Positions 4,312-62,873 are shown, counted from the whole stretch's first letter. The stretch: 62,873 nt of DNA, filler included, from Hausera hauseri (GCA_046269625.1; 12 parts of 12 records of this genome joined end to end with filler, not necessarily neighbours in it), one strand, 5' to 3'. Numbers and translations: made by a program. Notes: generated by a model not told the origin, from the letters alone.

Positions 4312-4604
4312 ATAGAAAGCCCAAGTATAAAATTGGTGATTATGTTCGAATCAGTAAAGCAAGCACAACACCTTTTATCAAGAACTTTGATAATAATTGG
4401 AGTGATGAGGTGTTTCGAATAAGTAGAATTAATACGAGGCAAATGCCTGTGATGTATGATATAACAGATGATGATGATGAAATTGTTCGGGTGGAGAAAA
4501 TCATCAGATCCAAAGGAAAAGGAAAAGGCAAACAGCATCTTGTCAAGTGGCATGGGCATAAGAATCCAAGATGGATACTTGATACGAATATAAATAGTCC
4601 TGAT
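4312..4604 (+). pseudogene. C-terminal fragment of a Polinton/Maverick integrase with chromodomain
   Basis: PKYKIGDYVRISK...KNFDNNWSDEVFRI...PVMYDI resembles the Maverick integrase C-terminal motif. VEKIIRSKGKGKGKQHLVKWHG...W is chromodomain-like. The fragment is internally deleted and ends at an LTR. Confidence 0.8.
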
Positions 4605-4836
4605 TGTGAGGAGGAATTTAAACGGATATTAATGTTTAAATTTAATTCAAAATTAATTCAATAAGGAGCCAATATAAATTCAGGAAATTCAAAACAGGGT
4701 GAATAGAAGAATCATTTAATGATTGAAGGATATAATTGTTATACAAACTCTTATAATAAATATCTTATGCATAATTCAATCTTACAATCATCGAATGACA
4801 TTGGGGTCGGAATGGTAGAGACGCAATCTACTAACA
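4605..4836 (+). mobile_element. 232-bp LTR (solo or orphan), same family as the LTR at 52274-52505
   Basis: TG...CA termini. Colinear with 52274-52505 and the same length (shared GGAGGAATTTAAACGGATATTAATGTTTAAATT...ATGGTAGAGAC). No matching TSD seen. Confidence 0.82.
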
Positions 4837-5010
4837 ATCACATCTAAAATTTTAGTCATTTTTAAAAAATTAAATTAAAGTGTTAAATGAAAGTTATTGC
4901 TAATTAGGAAACTAAAAACAAAATAATCACAATTTTAAACAATTTATTTAATTTTATACAATATTTAGGACGATCCAATGTTCTGATCAGATATTATTTT
5001 ATCATTATTC

Positions 5011-13400: not shown

Positions 13401-14600
13401 TATATGCTTTTCGATGAACTGGTCATATTCCATGTTCAACAGTCTGTCCAAATTCGTCAAGGTCTCGTAATGGGCGTCCATCCAGGTTCCGACTTCTATA
13501 GATTACGTCCACATGAGAATTCTTGTAAATCTCTTTATCTGTCTGTATTTCTACGATTGTGTTGTAACGGAACATGTCAGTTGACAGTATCCGGTAAAGC
13601 CGTTCAAAAGTCGAAATGGTTTTCAGTTTCATCGGCATCCAACATTCATCAAAGTCCAATTCGAAAAAGTACTACCGATACTGATTTGGGAGATATGCAC
13701 TATGTCTATCCACTTGGTCATATTTTAACACGGACAGAATACTTTAAATGAAACAGTATTAGTCGTCAGTATTTTTTACATTCATTACCGCATAAGAGTG
13801 CTTTAGAGCTCTAGGTATCGGTATGAATGATCGCCCGGACAGGTAAATTATATCACTCAACTTTGTTATGATAAAGCCGAGGGTGACATTTCGTATAATT
13901 CTCCATCCACTACCCTTTTCGGTGTAGATGGCGATTTTTTCATCGAGCTTTTCGTCTACATCGGCAATAAAATCCTCAGAGTATGGTAGGGCTCGATGTG
14001 ACAGGTGCCATAATTTCCTGTCACCCTTCAGATTTTCAAATTCTGCAAGTGCATAATATTGTACTTTGCAGTGGTGTTGGTGATGTTGTTTGATTTTCTC
14101 CCCTTCGGATTCCAACTGGTTGCGCACATTTTGCGGAACATGTCTCAATTGTGGCACTGTTATTGTTTTCGCCATCAGATCGTACTTGTCTGTAATAGGC
14201 GGTTCCTGCTGCTGATCCTGCTGCTGCTGATGCTCTGTATTGCTTCTTTTCAGATATTCGTCAAAACTTGTTGATGCTTGACGTTTCATGCTTGTTGAGG
14301 GAATACAGCTTTTTGCCGCCTCCATTAATATTTATTTCTGGACATCTAAAACTGGTTCAAGTGGTCCTTGTGCTCATTATAAAATTGTTCATAGTTGATT
14401 TCATCATCAACTATTGAACAACCGGGACAAATACATGCCTGTTTACCATGAACCGTTGTGGCGCCATAGTATTGATCCATTTCACTATGGCAACCATCAA
14501 CGTCGTGCACTGTACTTGTACAGTACCGTGGGTACATTGGGCAATGCACTAGCATCATCTTCTTCGACCGTGTAAACGGTCCGAGATGATGCTTGTGCAT
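10439..14600 (-). pseudogene. Near full-length, frameshifted Polinton/Maverick (adintovirus-like) protein-primed DNA polymerase B
   Basis: Motifs in order: SGW, VMNVKNTDD, ExoI YADIEA, DHDH..G...C..CNL zinc/endoVII-like module, ExoII FHNFRGYD, RFLDS, ExoIII YLKLDVYLLADVF, RGG, motif A YIDINNLYG, motif B KNNSLYGKTVEN, motif C GDIDS, AKGI, LSCNDDKR. Many stops and frameshifts. Confidence 0.93.
11834..12281. mobile_element. ~448-bp solo-LTR-like insertion inside PolB
   Basis: An AT-rich insert splits YSIPAMSWA|SALMSL. It is flanked by 5-bp near-repeats gccga (11829-11833) and gccca (12282-12286). Termini are ta(ttgt)...(ac)caca, i.e. TG...CA with one change. Confidence 0.65.
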
Positions 14601-14928: not shown

Positions 14929-17900
14929 AATAATGATCAAACTGATCGAAGCGATAGGAATCGCAATAATAGGAATGAAAGACGATATAATAAGAATTAC
15001 AGAGATCGGAACAGGAATGATAATTATGACCGTAGGAACGATCGATATAATAATCAGAATTTTGGCCGAAACAGCCCATTTAGCAAATCAAACTATAATA
15101 CGGACAGACGCGTGGACGGTCCAAAGAACTTTAATAATGGAAGTCGTCAGAACGATAATCGGAATTATGATGATTGCCAATATGGAAACCCAAGACAGGC
15201 TCCACCGCAGCAAACTTACAATAAAAATCCGAGTAGATCTAAATCTTCATTAAATGAAGATGGCCGTCAAAGAGTTGGAAGAAATGGCAATTTAGTCTGT
15301 TTTACATGTAGACAAGAAGGACATATTGCGAGGTCCTGTCCGAATCCGCGAAGCGTCTCGTTTGTGGAACCCATCAAAACTAACGTAATTAGAAAAGAAA
15401 ATTTAGAAGCAATCTATGGCGTTCGTCGAGACAAGGCATGATCATCGAGATACAAGATTTACGACGTTTTTTGAAAAATAAGCCTGATACTGATGACCCC
15501 AAAGTTCTAGTGGCTAGAAACGAATATGAGCACAAATTACAACTAATGGAAGTCTATCATGGTCTACGCGAACCAGAAACAGAATATGAACGTTCCATCG
15601 CCCTCGCCAAGGCTTACGGATATGGCACGGAAGAAGAACCTTCATAGGACAAACAAAGAGTCAGACGAAATGGAAAAACCTGAGACTCCGGATAAAGTAA
15701 TTATAGAGGTAGGGCCCGAGCACACTATGAAAAAGAAGACTAAGGAAATAGACGTCGAAGAGAAGGAAGAATTCCTAGAGCCCCTCATACTTAAAATTAC
15801 TAAAAACAGAGGCCGTTGTCCCTCGTTGAGGCGAAAAAGCAACGATAGATCTCCCATGCGCAAGTCGAGCACAAAGGAAGAAGTCGAAAGCGCACTAGAA
15901 AGCGACATCGAGTGCGCCTCGAACTGTCCAGAAATTAGTTTAGCTACGCCTGGAGAAATAGAAGGACTGATGAAATTTGCGGTTGAAATAAACGATGTAT
16001 GTCCGATACCTACCAGTGAAGAGGAAACAAAACAAGAAGAGAAACTTGATCCTAAAAAGTGGAAAATTAGGCGCTCGTGGAAAAATGCCGAAGAGTTAAA
16101 AAGAATGAGGGAAAATTGTCACGACCCAGAGGTATTACAACAGAATTTAGAGAAACTCAAAGCGATGAGTGAACAAATGGATATTTCGGGAAAAGAACAG
16201 AAGTTTGTTGAGAGACTGTACAAAAAGATAAAACTGTATAGCGAAGGAAAGCTAAGCGAAGCCATAGATTTCGATCAACCCGATGAAGTTGCAAAAGAGA
16301 CGCTAGCAAAATGGAAAAGCGAATTAGAACGCTGGACGAAAGTTGAGACGAAAAACTTAGAGGTGTGAGATAAGACCACACAAGACATGGAAACTAAAGT
16401 TAATCAGGCTCAGTCGCTGTTAACAACATTAGAAGTAAACCCGAAATTAAAGCGAACGGTACGAAATTTAAAGCGTGTAATGGACGAAATTAGATTCATC
16501 ATAGTTGAGCAATTAAAAAAGAAACCGGTTAAAGAAAGGACCGAAACAGATTTGGAGGTGTTGGGTATAGATTCCATAGATATTCCACCTTTAATGGAAA
16601 TAATAAAAATTGTTTCTAATGCGACAAGGCAATATATTAGCTTGGAAAGTCGTATTAAACTCGAAGCCGAAAAGCGGTCGCAGATAAATAGTCTAAGGAA
16701 TAGGATTATGTACCCAAATAATGATGAAACACAGAGAATAATTATAGCTTGTATCCTCGAATTTGATGAGTATAAAGACGAGTTCGACTATGCCTGTCGG
16801 ATCATTGATTTCATCAAAGGCCCAGATGATGAACTAGAAGATGCCAATAAGATGTTAAACAAAGCAATATTAGCAAAGTTAGGCATCAAGAATCAAATGA
16901 ATGAGTGGTCTAAAGTAATAAAAAGGTTGAGTAAACTAACAAGTAGCCAGATGAGTGAATTTCCGCAAAGTGAATTTAGAAGAAAGAGGCAGTTGGAAGA
17001 AGACAACCGAAATTTAGATACAATAAAAGCAGAAATTGATATCCGAACGCAATTTAAGTCCCTGCGTTCGTTAGGATTCATGGACAAAAAACAAGAAATG
17101 ATGATACTTGAAGATATATATAAAATGATCGAAGAAACAAATTTTACACAAAAACGGAACCAGATGCATGGCGTTTACCCAAAATTAAGAAACGTCCGTC
17201 TAGAAGGAATTCAAAAATTGGACCCCAAGCCCATAAGAGAAATATCCGTATGTGACCTTAAGGCATTAGACGTTTGTCCTAGTCACCAATCGACCCTTGA
17301 AGAGATAGTGACATTTTTACATCAACCACAGCAAGGAATGCCTGGAATCGATTAGAGGTATCATACCGAATTAACTAAAATAAGAAATGAGCAAAATCTG
17401 GAATTTGAAGAAGCCAAGTTCATAAAAAGGCTACTGGATGAGATAGACCCCGACTCCCAAGTTATTAATGAGATGAACGAATTAGTACAATTGATGGTGG
17501 AAATGGCAGAAATCAGCGATGAGAAATTAAGACAGCTGCTGCCTCAGATACAACAAGTGGAAGAAACTAATATCAAAACCAAACAGAGAGAGTTGAGATT
17601 GAACGAACTAGCTAAAGAACTCGAACCGTATAAAGTTAAGTATGCTCTTACCGAAGCAGAGAAGGCTGACAAGTCGCAATTTATACAAAGGTGGCAACGA
17701 GACGTAGCTTCCGAGTTAACTAATTACCAGGAGAAAGGACTTATATCAGCCGAAAAATTATGCCAGCTGCTAACTGTACTACGCCGAACTTTAGGAAATG
17801 GGCGCTGTTTCCGACCCACCCAAATGGTTATAATGCAACAGAAGCTACGCGAACTTAGGACAACCGTAGAGACGACGGGTGCAAGGAAGTCGACTGACAC

Positions 17901-19236
17901 ACTACCGAGAAGTTATCCACTACAGGATAATGAGAATGAACCAGATTGGGAGTCATATCTAGATGCCATGATAGCCGAAAACTCGAAAACTCCAGTGCAC
18001 TTAAACGAAACGGAGATATGCTCGCCGGAACAGAAATTTTGTGTAGAAATGCTCTTAGACCCGGTGCAAACTGAAAAGGATCTATTTAGGTTGATCAATG
18101 TGAACCTCACGGAAAACCAATTAAGACGGTGGATTCCCACTTTAACCAAATTAGCTGGCGAAGGGACAGTTTACAATGCCGCGCCAAAACTTCCAATTAA
18201 AGAATATGCCAAATTTCTAAGGACCAGGCCCGAAGAGGGAATTAAAGTAAAGATAACGGCAGATTGGATGGATGAAAAGGAACAAGAGTTTACTACGCGT
18301 TCATCCGTGGAGAATGTATTACTATGGATAAAGAATAATGGTTATAACAAAGAGCTGAACTATAGGCTATACTTCAGAGGAAGAATGCTGGATGAATCGG
18401 AACTGTTGACACAGGTTTGAATCGTGCCTGACGAGGTGAACCGGTTTGTAGTAACTATCGCTAACGACGAGATAAAAGAAGAGGCTATAAGGAAGGCAAA
18501 GGCCGAACAGCCAGTAGGACGGATAATAGGAGTCCGAGACGCGGTAATGTATTTTGAGTACCTACAAACAGATGAAGATAATGAGCAATACGATAAGAGT
18601 TTAGTACCAATGAATGTTTGTATACATGTTGTAACGAAACAGAAACGACCTATTGGTAGGCCACGGAAAGTACGGGAAGAAATCGATTATAATGGAGACT
18701 TGATCAGAGAACTGAGGCATATGTCCATACCAACCTTCAGTGCAGATAATGAGGAACTGAATGAACTAATGAAAGAATTGATACGTATAGTAAACCGCTC
18801 CAGTTTGAACGACGATGTGTTAGATGAAAAAGAAAAGGTCATAATAAATGCCGCTAAGGCCATGAAAGGCCTCCGGTGTAAATTATCCAAAAGTACCTTA
18901 AGCGACGAAGCAACGATTGAGAAGATTATGGTGGAAAATACCTTAGAGGAATTGAGGAAAATGATGTTATATCTAGCCATTAAAACCAACCCGAATCGCG
19001 AAAACGAATTTAATAAGGCTACCAGTTTAGCAAGGAAGGCTGCCAGGAAAATACCTCGAGAAGTAAACTGGTCGAAGTTATTCGAAAAGGAAGAAGAACA
19101 TAAAAGAGAATTCTTCTTCGACAACAACAGGCTCGGTGACCTGCTACGAAATGTAACCAGAAACCGCAGAGGAAACGAATCGAATTGGCTAATCAACCTC
19201 TTGACCATTATGATGCTAATAAGGCAGATAGGCGCC
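14929..19236 (+). mobile_element. Internal region of a giant LTR-type retroelement, copy 1: N/D/R-rich Gag tail, CCHC knuckle and long non-pol polyprotein (mildly decayed)
   Basis: CFTCRQEGHIARSC knuckle. ORFs 15559-16368, 16387-17355, 17473-18420 and 18424-end share one frame. Their three stops are single-base changes relative to the contig-8 paralog (TGG>TGA, CAG>TAG, GGA>TGA). Confidence 0.8.
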
Positions 19237-19660: not shown

Positions 19661-20220
19661 ATGATTAGACGAAAACTAAAAAATGCCGTAAAGAATTTTA
19701 CTGAAACCGAAATTCTAGTCCGAGAAGCAACGTGCAATGATCCATGGTGTACAAGCAATACTCTTTTATCCAAAATTGTCGAAATGACAAACGATGATCT
19801 GAAAATTACCAAGATAATGCCGATAATTTGGAAACGATTGAAAGACACCGGTAAAAAGTGGCGCCATGTCTATAAATCTCTATTGCTAATGGAATTTCTT
19901 ATTCTTCGTGGCAATCAGTCAATTGCCGATCACTGTAGCCAAAACATACCGTTTTTGAAAACGCTCGAACAATTTCAGTACGTAGAAAAGAGCGAGGATA
20001 TTGGTGAACGAATCAGGCGGCGAGTTCAGTCCATAGTGAAATTGTTGAAGGACAGTGATTTGTTGAAGGAAGAACGGAAAAAAGGCTATTTTGACGGATA
20101 TGAAATTTTCATCGGAAATTGTATCACAAGGGTCGAATGTGCCGGTGAAATATGGTAATGGTGTTGGAACGTTGAGTCAGGGTCCATCGGTTGGCAGTTT
20201 TCGTAGTTCGTCTGATAAAG
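19661..20220 (+). CDS. Epsin-type ENTH-domain protein, first exon; apparent 1-nt frameshift at the A-run 20078-20083
   Basis: IRRKLKNAVKNFTETEILVREATCNDPW...IMPIIWKRLKDTGKKWRHVYKSLLLMEFL...FQYVE...G..IR...LL.D...LKEER is the classic ENTH pattern. Confidence 0.88.
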
Positions 20221-38700: not shown

Positions 38701-40406
38701 GACATCTGTTCCGGACATCGAGATACGCTAACAGACGCAATAAAATTCTTGCACAAACCACAAGAATGGATGACCGGATTAGACCAGAATTTCCATACCA
38801 AGTTGACAAAAATAAGAGACGACCCACATTTTAGCTTTCAGGAATACAAGTTCGTAAAGAAATTGCAATGGACCCCGACTCAAAAGTTATAAACGAGATG
38901 TACGAATTAGTCTCTATTGGTAGAAATGGCGGAGATTAGTGACGAGAGGATGAGGCAATTGATGCCCAAGTTACAGAAAGTAGAAGAAACATGTATTAAA
39001 ACAAAACAAAGAGCAACAAGGTTGGACGAACCAACGAAAGAGCTTGAAGTTTATCGGAACAAATATGCTTTTACTGAGTCAGAGATCAAAAATAAACGAG
39101 AATTTGTGCAAAGATGGCAAAGAGATGTAATTATTGAACTGATTATCACCAAAAGGGATTCATCGATTCTAATGAATTAAGCGAATTACTGAAAAAGATT
39201 GAGTATGCTTGTGGGAACGGAATAGGTTTCCGAACTACGCAAATGAAAGAAATGCAACCAAGATTGAAAGAAATTCGAGAAAATGTGCAAAAAACAAACA
39301 GCCCTAGTAGACTATGGACTTCCAGATATTGAAAACGAACCAGAATGGGATGCTTATTTAGAAGAAATAGTAGCCGAAAGCCCGGTGACTCCAGTACACC
39401 TCGATGAAATACAAACGTATCCGCAGAACAGGAAATTCAATGTAGAGATGATCCTAGACTCAGCATTAACCGAGAAGGACCTGATGGAATCAATTAAGGT
39501 GAATATGACTGAAAATAAGCTCAAACAACTTATTCCGACCTTGACTAAACTATCTCGCGAGAATACGATTTACAGCACGGTGCCGAAACTTCTGATAAAA
39601 AAGTATGCAGACATTTTGAAGACTAAACGCGAGGTAATGATGAAAATAATTATATCATCCGGGTGGATGTAAGAAAAATAATGTAAATTAACTACTCATT
39701 CCTACGTAAAGGACGTAAGAGAATGGTTACTAAATAATGCGGAACAAATGAGCTAAATTACAGATTTTACTTTATAGGAAGAATACTCGACGATTTAGAA
39801 CAACTAATAGACGTCGGAATCATACCTGGCGAAATAAATCGGATAGTAGTAATAATAGCCAATGAACAGACAAAGGAAGAAGCCACACGTAAAGCTAAAA
39901 CGGACCAATGTGTAGGACAAATCATGGGAGTACGAGATGCAGCAATGTACTTCGAATACTTACAGACGGATGAAGACAAAGAACAATATGAAAAGAATCT
40001 AGTACTGATAAGTGGAATGCCAGCCAATGCTCCGAGACCAAAACGCCCAGTCGGCAAACCTAGAAAGCCCCGAGAAGAAATTGACTATAATGGAGAACTG
40101 ATTAGAGAATTAAGACAAATGTCGATTTCTACTCTTAGTACAGATAATGAAGAATTAAGCGAGTTAATGAAAAATTTAATACGTATCGTAAATTATTCGA
40201 GTCTCCGTGGAGATACATTAGACGAGAAAGAAAAGGCAATATTTAACGCAGCTAGAACAATGAGAAGTTCGCGTGTCAAACTGTCAAAAAGTAGCCTAAC
40301 TGACGACGCAATAATCGAGAAGATCATGGTGGAGAATACGATAGAACAGCTGAGAAAAGTATTATTGTACTTGGCAATTAAGACAAATCCTAATCGAGAA
40401 AATGAA
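35754..40406 (+). mobile_element. Giant LTR-type retroelement, copy 2: Gag capsid, N/D/R-rich linker, CCHC knuckle and long non-pol polyprotein (more decayed)
   Basis: Capsid-like LPAYDGDPDRLNDFL...LYLKNLAADAY...W..L..AL...QQKGESVTQF...L (major-homology-like motif). Knuckle CFTCGKEGHIARSC at ~36757. Colinear with 14929-19007 throughout. Confidence 0.82.
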
Positions 40407-47392: not shown

Positions 47393-49008
47393 ATGGTAGG
47401 CGATAGGGACGTCTTAAAACGTCCTTCATTGTATGTATGTATACACCATAATAATTTATATTTGTATTTGTTTTGTAGGAATTTAATGTTTAAATTTTTA
47501 AAATTCAATAAGTCTACAAATATGGATCCTGACGTCTGGAAAGAAGTAAGCCCTAACTACACTGCATTAAGATGTAGCTTCACCGGGGATACAGGCATCA
47601 ATAGAGCTTACGGACTCACACCTGAATCTACTCCAATGGATATTGTTAGTGCATTTATTTCTCGACAGGTATTTCAAATTATGACACTTGAAACGAACAG
47701 ATATGCTTAAAAATGCATGTCGTCAAATGTTTTAAAAAGCATAGCAAAGTTCAGTGTTGGGAAGTCACAAACACAAGTGAAGTGAAGAAATTTTTGGGTT
47801 TGGTCAAAAAGACATCCACTGGTCCACAGACCCAATACTTGCAATGCCTGTTGTCAACAGTACCGGTTTTGAGTTCTGACAGTTTTGAGTTGTTGAAGTT
47901 TTGGCACTTGGCTGTTGATGGAAACAGGCTGCACAAATTGAAATTGATTTGTGACACATTGCTTGCGGCATTCCAAAATGTGTATTATCCCAGCAAACAG
48001 GTACGAATTGATAAAGCTACGGTTCTGTGGCGTGGAAAGCTTGTATTTAAGCAGTACATTCCTGGAAAAAGACACAAATATAGAGTCAAGCTGTATTTGT
48101 TGTGTGAACTAAGTGGCTATATGTCGAATGTAATGGTTAACTGAGGAAAGTCTGGCTTAGTTTCAGGATTGGATCATTCCGAGGCAGTAGTTATAAAGCT
48201 GATGAATAATTTGAATAAGCTGATGTATAAAGGCCATGAACTTTATGTGGACAATTTCTACACCGGTGTTCCATTGGCTCAAGAACTGTTGAAGCGCAAA
48301 AACGCAGTTACGTGGAACACTTCGTAAAAACAGAAAACACTTGCCATCGGCAATTGTATCTGCAAAACTGCAGAAAGGACGTTGTGTAAGCCGATGCAAT
48401 GGTCCAGTAGTTGTGGTCAAGAGGAGAGACAACAGAGACGTTGGGATTCTGTCTACTTGCCACACAGGTAGGCTGATGTCATGGCGCAAATCAAATTATC
48501 TAGATGAACAAGTCCAGAAACCATATGCCATATTGGATTACAACATGAACATATGTGACGTAGACCACACAGATCAGCTGACATCATACTATTCATCACT
48601 TCGCCAGTCACTGCTTTGGTACAAAAAATCGTTCTGCATTTCCTGGACATGGCCATGACCAATGCCTACCTGCTGCACAAGAAGCTTCGTGGCAATCGAC
48701 AGCAGGTATGGTTTGGAACACAGGTGATACGTCAACTGTTGATATCAGATAACCATCCACCAAAACTGTCACCAGGGACATTATTTCGCCATCACAAGTT
48801 TTCGAATATGTCACGATTGAGCGGACAGCACTTCATCAGTGAAATTCCATCTCTGACTTATAAAGCAAAAACAATGCGCAAATGCGTCGTCTGAAGGAAA
48901 CAAGGTCGGCGCAAGGAGAGGAGATATTTGTGTGAGACTTGTATACTCAGACCGGCATTGTGTGTGACACCTTGCTTCAAAGTTTATCACACAGTCGAGG
49001 ATCACTAG
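47393..49008 (+). pseudogene. piggyBac (PGBD4-like) transposase pseudogene
   Basis: ETNRYA, IDKATVLWRGKLVFKQYIPGKRHKY, LYVDNFYT, GTLRKNR, YNMNICDVDHTDQ, and a C-terminal Cys-rich RKCVV...YLCETC...ALCVTPCFKVYH. Confidence 0.92.
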
Positions 49009-50167: not shown

Positions 50168-52273
50168 TTACAATGCTACATGTCGGTCAGGTAGTGTATG
50201 AATTCCATCACCCAGAATCTTGTGCTTGTTGTACATCCAATCTAGGCTTTTCTTATGCAGTGTTCCTGTTTCGTTGTTATGATCTCTAGATTGGATCATT
50301 CGCATTTCTGAAATAATGTGAGTCTGCACATGCAGAACTCTCACATAGTCCTCAAAACTGATCTTCTTGGACAATGTAGCCCTTTGAACGTCCTTGACTC
50401 ATTCGCGTACATCTTAAATCTGAGAGCTACAAATCTCGAGATAACTGCTCCATTCACTTCGTCTTTAAATTTCCCAAGGACTTTCTTATTGGCAATTGAA
50501 TAGTTGGGATGACCATTTGGATAGTCCGAGGTATCCATGTGTTTAGTCAATTGGGCAAAGTCCTCATAAATATCATTTGTATGGATCTCATAGATACAAC
50601 TATCAGTATTCATGTACATCAGCTGCATGTATTTGAACTTGGGGACCGTGATGTCATAATGAAAACTGTACATCAAGGTCGTTGATAGATCCAATATTGC
50701 CATATTCACATATATGGGTTTATTGAATACAACTGCTGTTTTCAGTATATGAATGTCTACTAAGTTCTCAATATATATGGTGCTGCTATGGAAGTTATGC
50801 TTGGCAATAAACTTCTTTGGCCTCTTCCATTCATGTACTAGCTCAATGTTGATTTTGTTGCGGATATTCTCCATGGTCTTGCCGAAAACGCTGTTATTAT
50901 ATAGCTTGAATTGGTCTTTCTCAAAGTCGTTCTTGGCATTAGTCCGCAGCTTCGTATTGAGATTTGTGCATGACTGCAGCCACATGGACTGGCTGAACTG
51001 CATGGCTCTATGGATCTTAGTAATACGAAATACATGTCTAACTGCCCGCCGGAGATTGATGTAGTGAACTACATAACTCTCCCTATTACCCACATTACAG
51101 AGCAGCTTTTCTGCATTCCATGGGGCGGAGGCTTGCTCTCAGGATAGAACCTGGATATTCCATATCTACTCCTGTATGTATCCGGTATCTCCAGTGAGAT
51201 CCAGGTCCAATATGGGGATGTTTTCAGAATTCTCGACCCATTTGAAGTTATTATATCGCAATCAGAAAGGATATTGTAAAAGTCCTTGTAGTTCGGCAAT
51301 AAGGTCTCATCCAGTGTTTCCCATGAGGTTATTGAGTCATAGGGAAACACGCATTTCCTTTTAACCAGGTCAGAGGTAGTGAGGAAGAACCGTTTCGTCT
51401 CCTTGAGTTCTTCTTCAAGGAGGTTCTTCACTAAACTGTCCAGTGACGAGCTCATGAAGCGGAAGCCATCAATGAAGCGAAGTCTGATGCGGCCCACATG
51501 CTTCGTAAATGTGATATACTTCTCCTCATTGTTTGGAACCACATCAATATTAAAATCAATGTTGCTTAATTCTCGGACAATGAAGTGGGAATCATAGACA
51601 CTGAGATTATAGAACACTATAGGCACATACGTGCATGTTTTGCAACGAAGATTGCAGTTTTTGCATACCTCGCTACGATATGCACCTGTAAAATGGCAGT
51701 GATCCTTTACTTTATAATTTTCCTTGGTGAAGGACTTGTCGCACAAGTAACATGATGTTGCCTTGATCAATTATTCTTGTTTTCACGACATGCTCATTGT
51801 ATTATTATGTTGCTGAAGCATGTTTTCAAGCTTATGAGCCATGTCTTCAAGTCGTTTCATGAAATGTGCTGCTGCCTCTGGACCTCTGAATAGAAATGGT
51901 TCACTGTCCAGTCCTTTGGCATACATACAAATAGCATATTAGTATGCCGTTATGCTGCTATGTTGAGGATTGGGAGTACAACTCTGAACTGGCCGGAGAA
52001 TAGCTTCAAAATCGCAATAGATAACTATTGGGACCTTGATCTTCTTCTCGAACTGTTTGAATTCAATTTTGTCCTCCTTGGGAAATTCTGGTCTTACACA
52101 GTAATTGTTGTTGCAGTACATTTTGTGCTAGGCAAGCTTGTCCACTGCTGAATCACCACTGAAATGAGACAGGCATCGCTTACATATTTCTATTTGTCCA
52201 TGATAATTCATAATTTGGGATCTGACTAGACGTTCAAAGATCTTAATCCAAACATAATGTTTCTTTTCCCCAT
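50168..52273 (-). pseudogene. Polinton/Maverick pPolB (copy 3), close relative of copy 2, with an internal deletion and cut by an LTR element
   Basis: YCDFEA, KDHCHFTGAYR, FYNLSVYDSHF, FIDGFRFM, VFPYD, then a deletion at ~51250 removing ExoIII to motif A, then KLYNNSVFGKTMEN, YMNTDS, LGKFKDE. Obvious nucleotide similarity to 32500-33165. Confidence 0.93.
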
Positions 52274-52505
52274 TGTAAGGAGGAATTTAAACGGATATTA
52301 ATGTTTAAATTCAATTCAAAGTTAATTCAATAAATAACCAATAAAAAGTTGGGAAATTCAGGAAAGGAAAAAAATAAGACTCATTTAATGAGTGAAGAAG
52401 ATAATTTTTATACCAACTTTTATAACAAATATCTTACGGATAATTTTGTTTTACAATCATCAAGTCAGGATGAGCTCGGGATGGTAGAGACACGTTTTAC
52501 TCTCA
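52274..52505 (+). mobile_element. 5' LTR (232 bp) of a Ty3/gypsy-type element inserted in pPolB
   Basis: TG...CA termini. PolB homology stops exactly at 52273. Homologous to 4605-4836. gag starts about 40 nt downstream. Confidence 0.85.
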
Positions 52506-52546
52506 TCGCGATCAACGCTTCAAGAGACTTCTTCGAGAAGAAATTG

Positions 52547-53880
52547 ATGCCGAGAGAATTCAAGAAAGGCGACCACGTGGAAACCTTTATTGGAAAATGC
52601 GAGAGATACTTCGACTTCATAAAGATGTCGGAGGCGGACTGGGAAACCGCGGTCCTGTGCCTTTTGTCAGAAGAAGCACAGGAGAAATACCATTTGGTGA
52701 GCCAGAAGGTGAAAGGTTACCAAAACCGGTTGAGAAGGGCCTTTGCAAAACCGACAACGCTGTGTGGAGATCTCCAGGAGGCCTTGGACTACAGAATGAG
52801 GGGGGCAGAACCCGCAGCCTACTTCAACAAAATTGAACAGCTGGCGAAAAGCATCTTTAGACACAAAGTAACACTGGAAGCTCCAATAGAGGAATTGATG
52901 ATCCACTGTTGTGGCGATCTGGAGTTAAGAAAAGAAATCTACCGCAGCGACGAAAAAAACTTAAAACAAATCAAAGAAAAAATACACAAATTTCACGAAG
53001 TGGCAAAGAAGACGCAACAGATAGACACAGTCAAAGAATACACTAGATACGGTCGACGGAGTTACCGGGATGTGGCAATGCAGAAACTTGACAAATCAAG
53101 ACAGGAAAGGAAGGATTTCAAACTGCAAAATACACAGGCAAACAATAAAATGAAATGCTGGTCGTGCCAGAAGGACGGGTATACAAGCAGGACATGCAAC
53201 CTCCAAGAAGCAACAAGATGTTTTGGTTGCGGAAAGAAGGGCATATTAACAGGAATTGCCCGAAAGGAAACCCATAATATGCTACGGGTGCGGTCAGCAA
53301 GTACACATAAGACGAAATTGCATAAACGTAAAATGCAATAGGTATCACAATAGAGGGCACAGGAAAGAAGAATGTTATACAAAATTTGACAAGAGAAGAA
53401 GAGGACAAAAAACGCATACAGAAAATTACAAAAGTGAGGGTACAATCAGAAAATATATGGAGAGAGGATAAACAACAGGCACACATACATTGCAAATGTT
53501 GATGAAAACTATGAAGAATCCATCATAGAGTCGACAACCCCAAAAGGCAGATCCTCAATAAAAGTGGAGCTAGTCGGGGCATTACATTAAACAACTCCAA
53601 AGGCTCCAGAAACACTGAAAGGAACGGACAAGGTATTGAAGAAATGAAGGAAAGAACAGAGGAAAAGTTACGGAGGTTCATAAAAAGGAAATGTTTGGGG
53701 ACAGAAACAAAGGTAGTACGATTTACGAAAAGTCAAAACGAGAGCCTCCATGAAGAGAGGATTTTTCCCATGGAAGGACTGACGGAAAAGCAGATCACGT
53801 ACTATAAACTACAAGGACGGCCAGGTATAAAAATAAAGATACAAGGTAGATGGGAAGACTGCCTATTGGACACAGGAGCA
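52547..53880 (+). pseudogene. Ty3/gypsy-type gag with four zinc knuckles and the start of the aspartic protease
   Basis: MPREFKKGDHVETFIGKCERYF capsid-like start. Knuckles CWSCQKDGYTSRTC, CFGCGKKGHINRNC (frameshifted), CYGCGQQVHIRRNC and CNRYHNRGHRKEEC. Protease motif CLLDTGA at the contig end. Confidence 0.88.
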
Positions 53881-53980: not shown

Positions 53981-55503
53981 ATTCTTCATGCTGCAGAATC
54001 ACAGGTAGCAGGGCTGATTGCACGGGCTGTGACCTTAGCTGGGTGCCATCTGATTTGCCCACAAACATAACCGAACTAATTCTAACAGCCAACTTCATTA
54101 GTAGTCATGCTCTATATCCTCGAGTGTTTGCAAATTATGCACAATTGACTGTTCTATATCTTGACTCAAACAGCATTACACATCTGACTGAAGGTATGTT
54201 CGAAGGGCTAGAGAATTTGAAAACCCTCAACCTGTATAATAACAGCATTAGTTTGAACTATGATCTCAATGAATCTAATGTATTTTCACCTCTAAGTGAT
54301 TGTTTGGAGATTCTCGTTATGAACAAGAACACCGACGATGTTTATTACGAGTCATTAATGTATCCAGATCAGGCACTTTCTGTTTTGAAACATCTGACTC
54401 AACTACATATTGACGGCTTGAAACACAGAATCTTTGGCAAAGGTTTTAATAATCTCACAAATTTAACATACTTGTCGCTAGCCGGTTACCCCGATGGCTA
54501 TTGTAATATGATTTCTATCACTAATTACACGTTTGAGCATTTAATGCATCTCACATACCTGAACATATCTAGCTGTAATCTCATAGGATCGAAAACTCAA
54601 GCAGATGCCTTTCACCGCCAGAGAAAACTGGAGATTTTAGATGTTTCAAACAATACCAATCTTGGTATCGAAGCTGTCGGAAACTTTATGTACGGATTAA
54701 GAAATAACACAAATCTTATACGTTTAAAAATGCAGAGAATAGTCAAACGATTCACTCCGTGTGTTGTGATCTATAATTACACACTACGATACTTCGGACA
54801 AACGGGTCTGAAAGTAATTGAGGCAATGAACAATGAAATTGAGATGATCGAGGCAGGGGCATTAGAGATGCTACCAAAGACGCTCACAGAAGTTAACATC
54901 ACGAACAATAGGATCATGTTTGGAGCTTATTGGGAAGATATGGCATCCTTAACAGGACTAAAGATGTTACATCTTGATGGCTATCTCACTCCTGAAAAGT
55001 TTCCTCTCTTTTTTCCGTCCAAAAATCTGCATTGCCCGTCTCCGGGAACAGAAAGTGACAGTGATGTTGCAACAGAGAAAAATGACAAGAAATGTATCTG
55101 TGGGCCAGGTACGTGTTTATCAGAAAAGGAGGAATTTACACTGCCCTTACCGCCTAATCTAATAAATTTTACCATGCATGGTAATTCGCTTGCTTATAAT
55201 GTCAATAATATCAGATTTTGTCCCACGAACAACCTGACAAGTGTTGACCTGACGGGAAACATGTTTCAACGGCTTGAAGGGCCAATCGTCGGACTTAACA
55301 AAATCCAGTACTTGAATTTATCAAGTTGTTTTATACAAACGATCGAAGATAACTTTTTTGACAACCTCACAAGTTTAGTTCATCTCAACTTATTTCAGAA
55401 CTTGCTAGGTGACCGTGTCAACAATGATACAGAGGGAAATATTTTTGACAAACTCAGTAATTTGAAATATTTGAATGTTTCGTTCAAAATTACCTTCCTA
55501 TAG
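53981..55503 (+). CDS. Toll-like-receptor-type leucine-rich-repeat ectodomain fragment (both ends missing)
   Basis: LRRNT-like CCRITGSRADCTGCDLSWVPSDLPTNITEL. Many LxxLxLxxN repeats (LTVLYLDSNSI, LKTLNLYNNSI, LVHLNLFQNLL) and many N-glycosylation sites. Intronless. No LRRCT, TM or TIR before the stop. Confidence 0.8.
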
Positions 55504-56315: not shown

Positions 56316-57250
56316 TCAATTAATTCGTCGGATCAATTGCTTTTTCCACTGAATTTTCTGCATTGTCGTCCGGGGAGTAATCATAAATTCCTGCTTTAGG
56401 GAATCCATTTTTAATGCATTTAATAGATATTTCATCCAAACTTTCTTTGATCCAATTGCAAATTTCACTATAATTCGCTCTTTTTTGTGTTCCATCTTTA
56501 GTAAAGTATTCATTCCTTCGGACATCCATTCTTTCCATTGTTCTTTAAGTTTAGGTTTGAAAGAACAATTGAGAGTTAGATCCAGAAGTTGAAGTTTTCT
56601 GGTTAAACATCCAGGAATTATCGCCAATTTTGAATACAACCTTTTCTCTTTTTTTACTCCTTCCGTGATGTGATTTGTGGTAGAGTCCCAAATTAGAAGT
56701 GATTTTGCTTTACTCGTAAGTAATGCATTTTTTCGAGCGCCCCAGACATCGCTGAACTATTCTTTTATTATGGTTTGATTGATCCAATTTTTTCCCTTGA
56801 CTTTTGCAACAATTCCTTTAGAAAACACCTTTTGGCATTGTTTTCCTCTTAAAGATGACGAGTGGCGCACATTTAATTTTTCGTGACAAGTTGGTGATAT
56901 TTTCACGTCTTGTGCCATTTTTGACCACTGTATGGCGACCAACCATATCGAAACTAATAGGAACTTCGTCCATATTTTCTATTTGTTGAGAAACTATTCC
57001 TCATTTATTAGTTTCGACAGACTGTTTAAATAAAACCATCTTTACTTCCTAGTGGGCAGGAAGTTTCTGTCCAACTGACGTGACTGCACGAACCGAAAAT
57101 CCATGTCTTTTTATAAATCGATCTCATCATTGGTCACTACCTTTGAAATTAGTGATTTTCAGTTCTTCTGCTATTTCTTTCGACTTTCTTTTGATACACA
57201 TCATTTTCAACATATTCTACTATTTCTAACTTTCTTGCACTCATAATTTT
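56316..57250 (-). pseudogene. pogo/Tigger-type (DDE_1) transposase pseudogene
   Basis: NMDEVPISFD, LLIWDSTTNH and IIPGCLTRKLQLLDLTLNCSFKPKLKEQWKEWM, across broken frames. Confidence 0.85.
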
Positions 57251-62040: not shown

Positions 62041-62873
62041 TTAGTGTTTATTTGTCAAAAGAAATTTAATGTTAATTTTCTCAATGCTTTTGCACAATGG
62101 AAGTAAATCCTGCAGAACTTTAATTGCACGTTCAGCACAAATGTTTGACCTTTGAGTTGGGATTGGAGTCGGCTCAACGGACCAAAAAGACTTTAAAGTC
62201 TTTATTGCCTTTGAGTGATCTTTGCAAACGGCTGCCAAATTATTGTAGTTATCCTGATTATAAACTTGACCAGAGAACCAGATGTCACTCCACGTGCCAC
62301 TAATAAAGTCACATGATGACTGACCTTCGGCTGACTGTCGAAATTCTGGGAGTAAAATATAAGCTAGCAAAGCATAGATTGCTCGGCTATTCCATCTTGC
62401 ATTGCTTATATTTGGCAAAGTTCTGAAATTTACTTTAGGGAAGCATCCTGTTTTCTTAAACTGTCTGTAACAAGTGATCAAGTGATGAAGGAAAGCCATA
62501 TCATCTCTCCAAACAATTTCGTCTTCTTCCTTCAGAGCATCTCCACTATTGTCAAAAGATGCTTTCAGTTGCTGGTACTCTTCTGTTATTCTAGTAATGA
62601 ACGAATACTTGAGATTAGGCGAGGTTGTTGCTCCTTCAAAATAATCATTCATCACATGTTTCAGTAATGTATCAAGAACATGATGCTGGCATCCAATATA
62701 AAGAGGTTTGTCTAATCCAAGCTTCACAAAATGCTTCTGTAGTCGTGTGACTGCCCCAACAGATTTTCCTGTATTTGCAGAGGTTGTGTCAGAAATTATT
62801 AACTTAATTGCAGGCCATAGTTTATATTCATCAAGCACAGTTTTTATTCCATTGAATATTGTTTCACCTTTTC
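62041..62873 (-). CDS. DDE transposase C-terminal part with a CxxH-type motif (hAT-related, hATm-like); frame intact and running off the window; probable terminus TAGGG at 61851
   Basis: SDTTSANTG..GA (second D), IGCQHHVLD, SNARW, and SNICAERAIK (E). Family assignment is from recalled motifs. Confidence 0.75.
   Translation of the reverse strand, partial: KGETIFNGIKTVLDEYKLWPAIKLIISDTTSANTGKSVGAVTRLQKHFVKLGLDKPLYIGCQHHVLDTLLKHVMNDYFEGATTSPNLKYSFITRITEEYQQLKASFDNSGDALKEEDEIVWRDDMAFLHHLITCYRQFKKTGCFPKVNFRTLPNISNARWNSRAIYALLAYILLPEFRQSAEGQSSCDFISGTWSDIWFSGQVYNQDNYNNLAAVCKDHSKAIKTLKSFWSVEPTPIPTQRSNICAERAIKVLQDLLPLCKSIEKINIKFLLTNKH

Follow-up and report, generated by a model that had tools for sequence, protein, structure and literature searches.

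The window analyzed here is a stretch of 62,873 nucleotides of Hausera hauseri DNA (GCA_046269625.1) made up of 12 short contigs joined by spacers. Two of these, contig 4 (14929-19236, ∼4.3 kb) and contig 8 (35638-40406), probably carry the 5' part of a high-copy-number, gypsy-type Gag element in two decayed copies, in which the Gag frame continues behind the zinc knuckle into a long additional coding region (the cargo). By analogy with the planarian element Burro, this is likely to be a giant long terminal repeat (LTR) retrotransposon whose protease, reverse transcriptase (RT), RNase H, and integrase would lie beyond the contig ends. A capsid-like domain, a knuckle, one ancestral frame, purifying selection, many diverged copies, and continuation past both ends are shown by the data.

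Two colinear copies of a Gag-fused frame

Contigs 4 and 8 had been described as colinear homologs in an earlier note made from the sequence alone, and this was borne out by three colinear BLASTN pieces with 65 to 71% nucleotide identity and by 56% amino acid identity across the 1,168 codon pairs compared behind the knuckle. Both contigs matched each other and no other contig of the window. Contig 8, for which the note gave 35754 to 40406, starts at 35638, and position 35754 is the Gag ATG. From this ATG to the contig end, the two contigs span ∼1,650 codons, and the sense strand is A rich (39 to 40% A).

In copy 8, the Gag capsid is encoded at 35754-36446 on the plus strand (230 codons from the ATG), and this region matched PF03732 with an E value of 2.4e-4 and 21.7 bits, compared to the Pfam cut-off of 24.1. 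It is followed by an Asn/Arg-rich low-complexity linker (36447-36756, plus strand, with one stop), from which it is split by a frameshift near 36440. Contig 4 begins downstream of the capsid, inside the linker, which is one open frame in this copy (14929-15297, plus strand). A single CCHC zinc knuckle was present on the plus strand of both copies, detected by motif pattern in copy 8 (36757-36798) and by PF00098 in copy 4 (15298-15339; E value of 2.2e-6). The knuckle claimed previously was therefore found twice and the capsid in copy 8 only, and the combination of capsid domain and CCHC knuckle is that of Ty3/gypsy elements, with a PF03732 match below the cut-off.

The reading frames were compared by a frameshift-aware alignment in which an X was placed at each break. 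As proposed earlier, contig 8 runs from the knuckle into the cargo in one frame, and the cargo of this copy (36799-40406, plus strand) is in frame with the knuckle, is heavily decayed, and runs off the contig end. Each of the three in-frame stops of contig 4 (16366, 17353, and 18418) faces a sense codon in contig 8 from which it differs at a single base, and no stop was common to both copies. These results supported an ancestor with one Gag-fused open reading frame (ORF). The single-base origin of the three stops held, but two compensating one-base frameshifts of contig 4, near 15433 and 15604, had gone unlisted; the segment between them (15433-15604, plus strand) is in another frame. The aligned part of contig 8 contained 13 in-register stops and 7 frameshifts, and the linker stop and the shift near 36440 bring these totals to at least 14 and 8, respectively; 12 of the stops lie past the knuckle. 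In contig 4, the frame reaches the contig end at 19236 without a stop, and the claim of more than 1,200 post-knuckle codons was borne out with ∼1,310.

Purifying selection on the cargo

The ratio of nonsynonymous to synonymous substitution rates (dN/dS) was calculated over the aligned post-knuckle codon pairs, with stop, gapped, and frameshift codons dropped and transitions weighted 4. Comparison of copy 4 with copy 8 gave a dN/dS of 0.29 (bootstrap confidence interval [CI], 0.25 to 0.34), while 90 simulations of a neutral control gave values of 0.85 to 1.30 with ∼35 to 40 stops. Identities at the three codon positions were 0.68, 0.77, and 0.43. With equal weights for transitions and transversions, dS was saturated in most regions, and hence the value of 0.29 is if anything too high. 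Constraint increased toward the contig end, with dN/dS values of 0.12 at 18471-18690 and 0.09 at 18691-19009, where identity was 75%. The loosest part was a charged, poorly conserved spacer at 15616-15990 (plus strand), with 36% identity and a dN/dS of 0.49 (CI, 0 to 0.78). The cargo is under purifying selection, and the protein-level conservation proposed in the earlier note, for which a ratio of about 1 behind the knuckle would have been contrary evidence, was supported.

A large family of diverged copies

Further copies were looked for in two public runs, X1 and X2, which carry two organism labels, come from two studies, and contain the stretch at shares of 0.33 and 0.06. No RNA data set was found to carry it, which has no bearing on its expression. 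Assembly contigs were placed on contig 4 at 80% likeness. Placement was obtained for 11,046 of 15.5 million contigs in X1 and 1,442 of 9.6 million in X2; these covered all 30 bins of contig 4 and were mostly 80 to 95% alike, with transitions dominating. Copy number cannot be read from summed depth, but the placement of thousands of different short contigs within 4.3 kb indicates a large, diverged repeat family. The ends of contig 4 were overrun by 90 contigs in X1 and 8 in X2, depth in the last bin matched that in the rest, and continuation into unlike sequence was seen at shares of 0 and 0.03, respectively. Contig 4 therefore contains no element end, and members of the family regularly include the cargo; a junction between the knuckle and other sequence was not common inside this contig.

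At least two of the breaks in copy 4 are private to it, since other contigs differ there. For the stop at 17353, the whole depth over its first base (26 contigs in X1 and 8 in X2) differed from copy 4, and at the 15604 shift, 94% and 100% of the depth differed from it in length. Of the three stops of copy 4, the one at 17353 is among the 40 variant rows, of 799, that were covered. A dispersed multicopy family with private decay, as in Ty3/gypsy elements, was thus found, and a gypsy-type Gag, a very high copy number, private decay, and selection between lineages are together characteristic of a replicating retroelement. A host gene family domesticated from Gag with an added helical tail, similar in kind to Arc and PEG10, would also show a tail under purifying selection and no pol. 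It would have to accommodate thousands of diverged contigs, two broken copies, and the absence of introns; it is largely refuted by copy number and was considered very improbable.

The shift near 15433 behaved differently, as a length difference was present in only 25% (X1) and 38% (X2) of the depth. The knuckle frame of copy 4 ends right at the shift in a stop codon (15439-15441), which shares bases with an ATG of the cargo frame, the shifted one, within 15438-15441. The overlap may be due to chance or may be a restart signal in one subfamily. Similarly, the low share may arise from the way in which clipped contigs are counted, or it may reflect a genuine second state. In the latter case, Gag of copy 4's subfamily would end at 15439-15441 and the cargo would be produced either through a frameshift or through translation restarting at the ATG, with the fusion confined to the subfamily of copy 8. 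The position of the stop and the contrast between the shares at 15433 and 15604 favor this arrangement. However, copy 8 is in frame at this site and has Leu instead of Met, the length difference is found in 11 and 3 contigs of copy 4's own subfamily, the depth still includes contigs that are clipped at an insertion, which can explain the low share, and no classical slippery heptamer was visible. Split expression was judged to be unlikely, and a fused Gag-cargo frame remains the preferred interpretation.

Enzyme motifs and contig ends

None of the 12 frames of contigs 4 and 8 contained a motif of protease or RT or the GPY motif of integrase, relaxed protease, RT, and integrase patterns found nothing in the aligned frame, and the contig 4 and 8 pieces that were scanned had no match to the Pfam families of these enzymes. 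The same motif scan detected the knuckle and protease motif of an ordinary gypsy element on contig 11, which indicated that the scan works. The ∼1,310 codons past the knuckle are free of protease, RT, RNase H, or integrase motifs. The previous claim of an element with no protease or RT holds for the ∼1,650 codons in hand; for the whole element it is unsupported, because both contigs end inside the frame and the repeat continues. Contig 8 includes only 116 bases 5' of the Gag ATG, and neither contig holds an element end.

A pol-less element, in which Gag and cargo are the whole coding content, the hydrophobic helix at the end of contig 4 is the real end, and mobilization occurs in trans through the enzymes of another element, would account for ∼1,650 codons with no enzyme motif and for the last 19 residues being the second most hydrophobic window of the read-through. 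Against this, the frame has no stop up to the contig end, the mean hydropathy of 1.11 in this helix is low for a membrane anchor, depth is high in the last bin with contigs overrunning the ends, and the protease of Burro sits behind such a cargo. We consider such an element improbable, although slightly less so than split expression. The missing enzymes are probably explained by the shortness of the contigs and, by analogy with Burro, are likely to be located beyond their ends. Calling an element pol-less from short contigs of such families is unsafe.

Domain candidates in the cargo

The cargo is enriched in Glu, Lys, and Arg. In copy 4, the spacer is followed by a Glu/Lys-rich orphan region (15991-18228, plus strand; 53 to 57% identity, dN/dS of ∼0.3) that contains the stops at 16366 and 17353. 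Helical and coiled-coil regions had been proposed for the cargo. Helices were predicted for the last 180 residues, with a predicted local distance difference test (pLDDT) score of only ∼41, and a crude heptad scan of the read-through found 0 coiled-coil runs.

A ubiquitin-like (beta-grasp) candidate spans 18229-18486 on the plus strand and includes the stop at 18418. Its UBX match (E value of 0.016) is below the cut-off and on par with chance matches of other pieces in the scan, and the fold model has a pLDDT of ∼30 there, so that the ubiquitin-like domain claimed earlier is retained as a putative one; its assignment also draws on a motif likeness. No PDB sequence of the ubiquitin family matched the candidate. 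Both copies lack the Gly-Gly end, which suggests an integral domain rather than a cleavable tag. The proposed AT-hook was recovered as an AT-hook-like pattern at 18637-18669 (plus strand) in contig 4, with a near match in contig 8.

The most conserved block (18673-19236, plus strand) is predicted to be helical and is cut by the contig end. Its last helix (19180-19236) is hydrophobic over 19 residues. This segment had been described as terminal, which is unsupported, since the frame leaves the contig at 19236 without a stop; a role as membrane anchor is likewise unsupported. In BCL2-like domains, the central helix is hydrophobic, and the block resembles a BH3-to-BH1 stretch, a likeness that no tool confirmed. 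From its position and this likeness, the block could be a cut BCL2-like domain. Searches for a BCL2-like domain returned no Pfam, PDB sequence, or fold match. The two structure models (pLDDT of 37.2 and 41.0) are too low for use, and the absence of BCL2 from the fold matches excludes nothing. Fold searches with these models gave nothing at an E value of ≤0.001, and the hits were generic helical bundles (best Z of 9.4; root mean square deviation of 2.8; 84 aligned residues). No Smc profile match was found. Weak Pfam matches to Polyketide_cyc, Rpp40, Cas1, Aldo_ket_red, and other families (E values of 0.002 to 1) were rejected as chance.

Searches for relatives

A full HMMER scan of 1.84 billion representatives returned one match, P0002, a singleton of 150 amino acids that aligned to 17485-17871 with 36% identity and an E value of 2e-16. 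No match at an E value of ≤0.001 was obtained for the cargo among longer proteins (2,933 candidates scored) or proteins of similar length (7,997 scored), or for Gag among longer proteins (2,144 scored); each of these is a weak negative result. Locus scans found 0 relatives in metagenomes (2 of 2) and viral sequences (2 of 2). The best score in the ESM Atlas, in a search that excluded the C-terminal region of copy 4, was 0.76, which is at chance level, and PDB sequence searches with pieces of the element found nothing meaningful. An exact look-up of five proteins of the window in the protein collection gave 0 of 5. Judged by sequence, the cargo appears to be close to an orphan.

Comparison with Burro and other elements

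In canonical Ty3/gypsy elements (Metaviridae), the protease normally lies close behind the knuckle. Contigs 4 and 8 share with these elements a PF03732 capsid followed by a CCHC knuckle, an A-rich sense strand, and dispersed, decaying copies, but the distance from knuckle to protease motif is ∼200 codons on contig 11, whereas here no protease occurs for at least 1,310 codons. An ordinary, decayed gypsy-like gag at 52334-53880 (plus strand), which has a knuckle and, where its contig ends, a protease motif, forms a contrast to contigs 4 and 8.

The existence of giant single-ORF LTR elements with inserted domains, as asserted in the earlier note, is confirmed by the description of Burro (PMC6431247). 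Burro, or GYPSM1, is a group of giant gypsy-like LTR retrotransposons of Dugesiidae planarians, with elements of >25 kb present in thousands of copies (PMC6431247). ORF1 encodes 4,873 amino acids (5,140 in D. tigrina), in the order retrotrans_gag, two to three CCHC knuckles, Smc-like, MATH, Ubi2/SUMO-like, BCL2-like, env, protease, dUTPase, RT, RNase H, and integrase, with BIR and ankyrin further along the frame; MATH is outside ORF1 in D. tigrina, and fragments with stops and frameshifts occur in Dugesia japonica (PMC6431247). PMC13465017 calls Burro1 planarian specific and cites an anti-apoptotic function of its IAP region, which reportedly protects host stem cells. The parts consulted of PMC8532177, PMC11410931, PMC13238120, and PMC13326412 added nothing further on the domain order.

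The likenesses are a Gag and CCHC opening to a very long frame, a long nonenzymatic region (before the protease in Burro, and of at least 1,310 codons here), and a very high copy number with decayed copies; for the ubiquitin-like domain of the Burro cargo, contigs 4 and 8 offer a candidate below the cut-off. In a comparison made by description only, contigs 4 and 8 would correspond to the first third of such a polyprotein. The earlier designation of the family as undescribed may be too strong as worded, since the Burro layout is much closer than had been allowed. Differences were also apparent: no MATH match was found here, although MATH is also absent from D. tigrina ORF1; a BCL2-like domain was undetected in the cargo; section 7 of PMC6431247 does not mention an AT-hook for Burro; and env, protease, dUTPase, RT, RNase H, integrase, BIR, and ankyrin were not found within contigs 4 and 8.

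Other LTR elements with additional coding content are less similar. The Vesta, Juno, and TelKA LTR elements of bdelloids, and Terminons, have extra coiled-coil, membrane, or enzyme cargo, but in the bdelloid elements this is a separate ORF3 downstream of pol instead of a fusion to Gag behind the knuckle (PMC5408684). The C. elegans element Cer1 encodes, besides Gag and Pol, a novel nuclear regulatory protein, CERV, but does so from a spliced mRNA (PMC10309623). A cargo located between Gag and protease in a giant element was described only for planarian Burro in the literature searched.

Several points weigh against a giant Burro-like LTR retrotransposon. The capsid had no PDB sequence match and its PF03732 match is below the cut-off; there is one knuckle compared to the two to three of Burro; and the scanned pieces had no profile matches to MATH, BCL2, BIR, or env. 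No pol, LTR, primer-binding site, or target site duplication was present in the contigs, which could not hold them, and the LTR retrotransposon label is therefore drawn from Gag, copy number, and decay. Given the shares at 15433, the Gag-cargo fusion may fail for some copies. Finally, X1 may have the same source as the window and would then not be independent support. A giant LTR retrotransposon is still the probable interpretation overall.

Descent from the Burro lineage is possible, at somewhat below even chances. An independent origin of the same layout, in a giant Gag-fused lineage outside planarians with a very high copy number and a nearly orphan cargo of 1,300 residues, is somewhat less likely. 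If the latter is true, Gag-cargo polyproteins would be a recurring strategy for manipulation of host cells and not a planarian oddity. The family of contigs 4 and 8, as a second abundant one whose conserved cargo is different, would represent either a divergent, single-knuckle branch of Burro or a case of convergence, and the cargo module is tractable for testing under either origin. The layout is known in kind, while the cargo is conserved and has no named counterpart.

Proposed mechanism

If the element is a giant LTR retrotransposon, translation of its RNA would yield a single, very long Gag-cargo(-Pol) polyprotein, from which the element's own protease would release capsid, cargo domains, and enzymes. 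The knuckle would package the RNA, and copies would spread via reverse transcription. The cargo would be kept under selection while individual insertions decay because each lineage replicates with its own cargo. The module of ubiquitin-like domain, AT-hook, and helical block may act on the host; its AT-hook part could anchor particles or integration complexes to AT-rich chromatin. The last block, if it is a cut BCL2-like domain, might keep the carrier cell alive.

Other features of the window

No tRNA genes and no Rfam matches were detected in the window. A second large frame was present on contig 9 (40507-44140, plus strand), which is open at the 5' end, has 1,159 codons, no Pfam match, and three hydrophobic stretches. 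A likeness to DEDD exonucleases was noted by eye only, and a PDB search gave no support. Approximately 150 bases past its stop, a purine run is followed by TG, as in a polypurine tract and the start of a 3' LTR, and this frame is probably the cargo ORF at the 3' end of a large LTR element. Nothing connected it with contigs 4 and 8, and its CpG ratio was 0.77, compared to 1.15 there.

Related fragments of protein-primed DNA polymerase B with an endonuclease VII motif, which are Polinton-like, were found at 32296-34260, 50341-51770, 13759-14331, and 4312-4870 (contigs 2, 3, 7, and 11). A piggyBac-type transposase fragment (PF13843) was located at 47692-48144 (plus strand), and a transposase-like frame with no Pfam match was located at 62041-62871 (minus strand).

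Genes elsewhere in the window, namely, ERLEC1/OS9-like, Dcc1, epsin ENTH, RING, and leucine-rich-repeat (LRR) sequences, indicate an animal host. The epsin ENTH frame (19661-20158, plus strand) is short, intronless, and divergent, while the intronless RING finger protein (29673-31166, minus strand; 496 codons) has a second, degenerate RING-like cysteine cluster. On contig 12, an intronless LRR ectodomain of 506 residues (53983-55503, plus strand) had Toll-like receptor (TLR) 3 among its best PDB matches; the frame has no TIR domain and ends without a membrane part. Transposase-like fragments follow it on the minus strand near 56316-56978. Flatworms lack TLRs, yet TLR-like proteins occur in those groups (PMC8609888). 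The TLR-resembling frame hints at a non-flatworm host, an indication weakened by the TLR-like flatworm proteins and the lack of a TIR domain. CpG was not depleted on most contigs (ratio of 0.66 to 1.15), which suggests little CpG methylation in the host.

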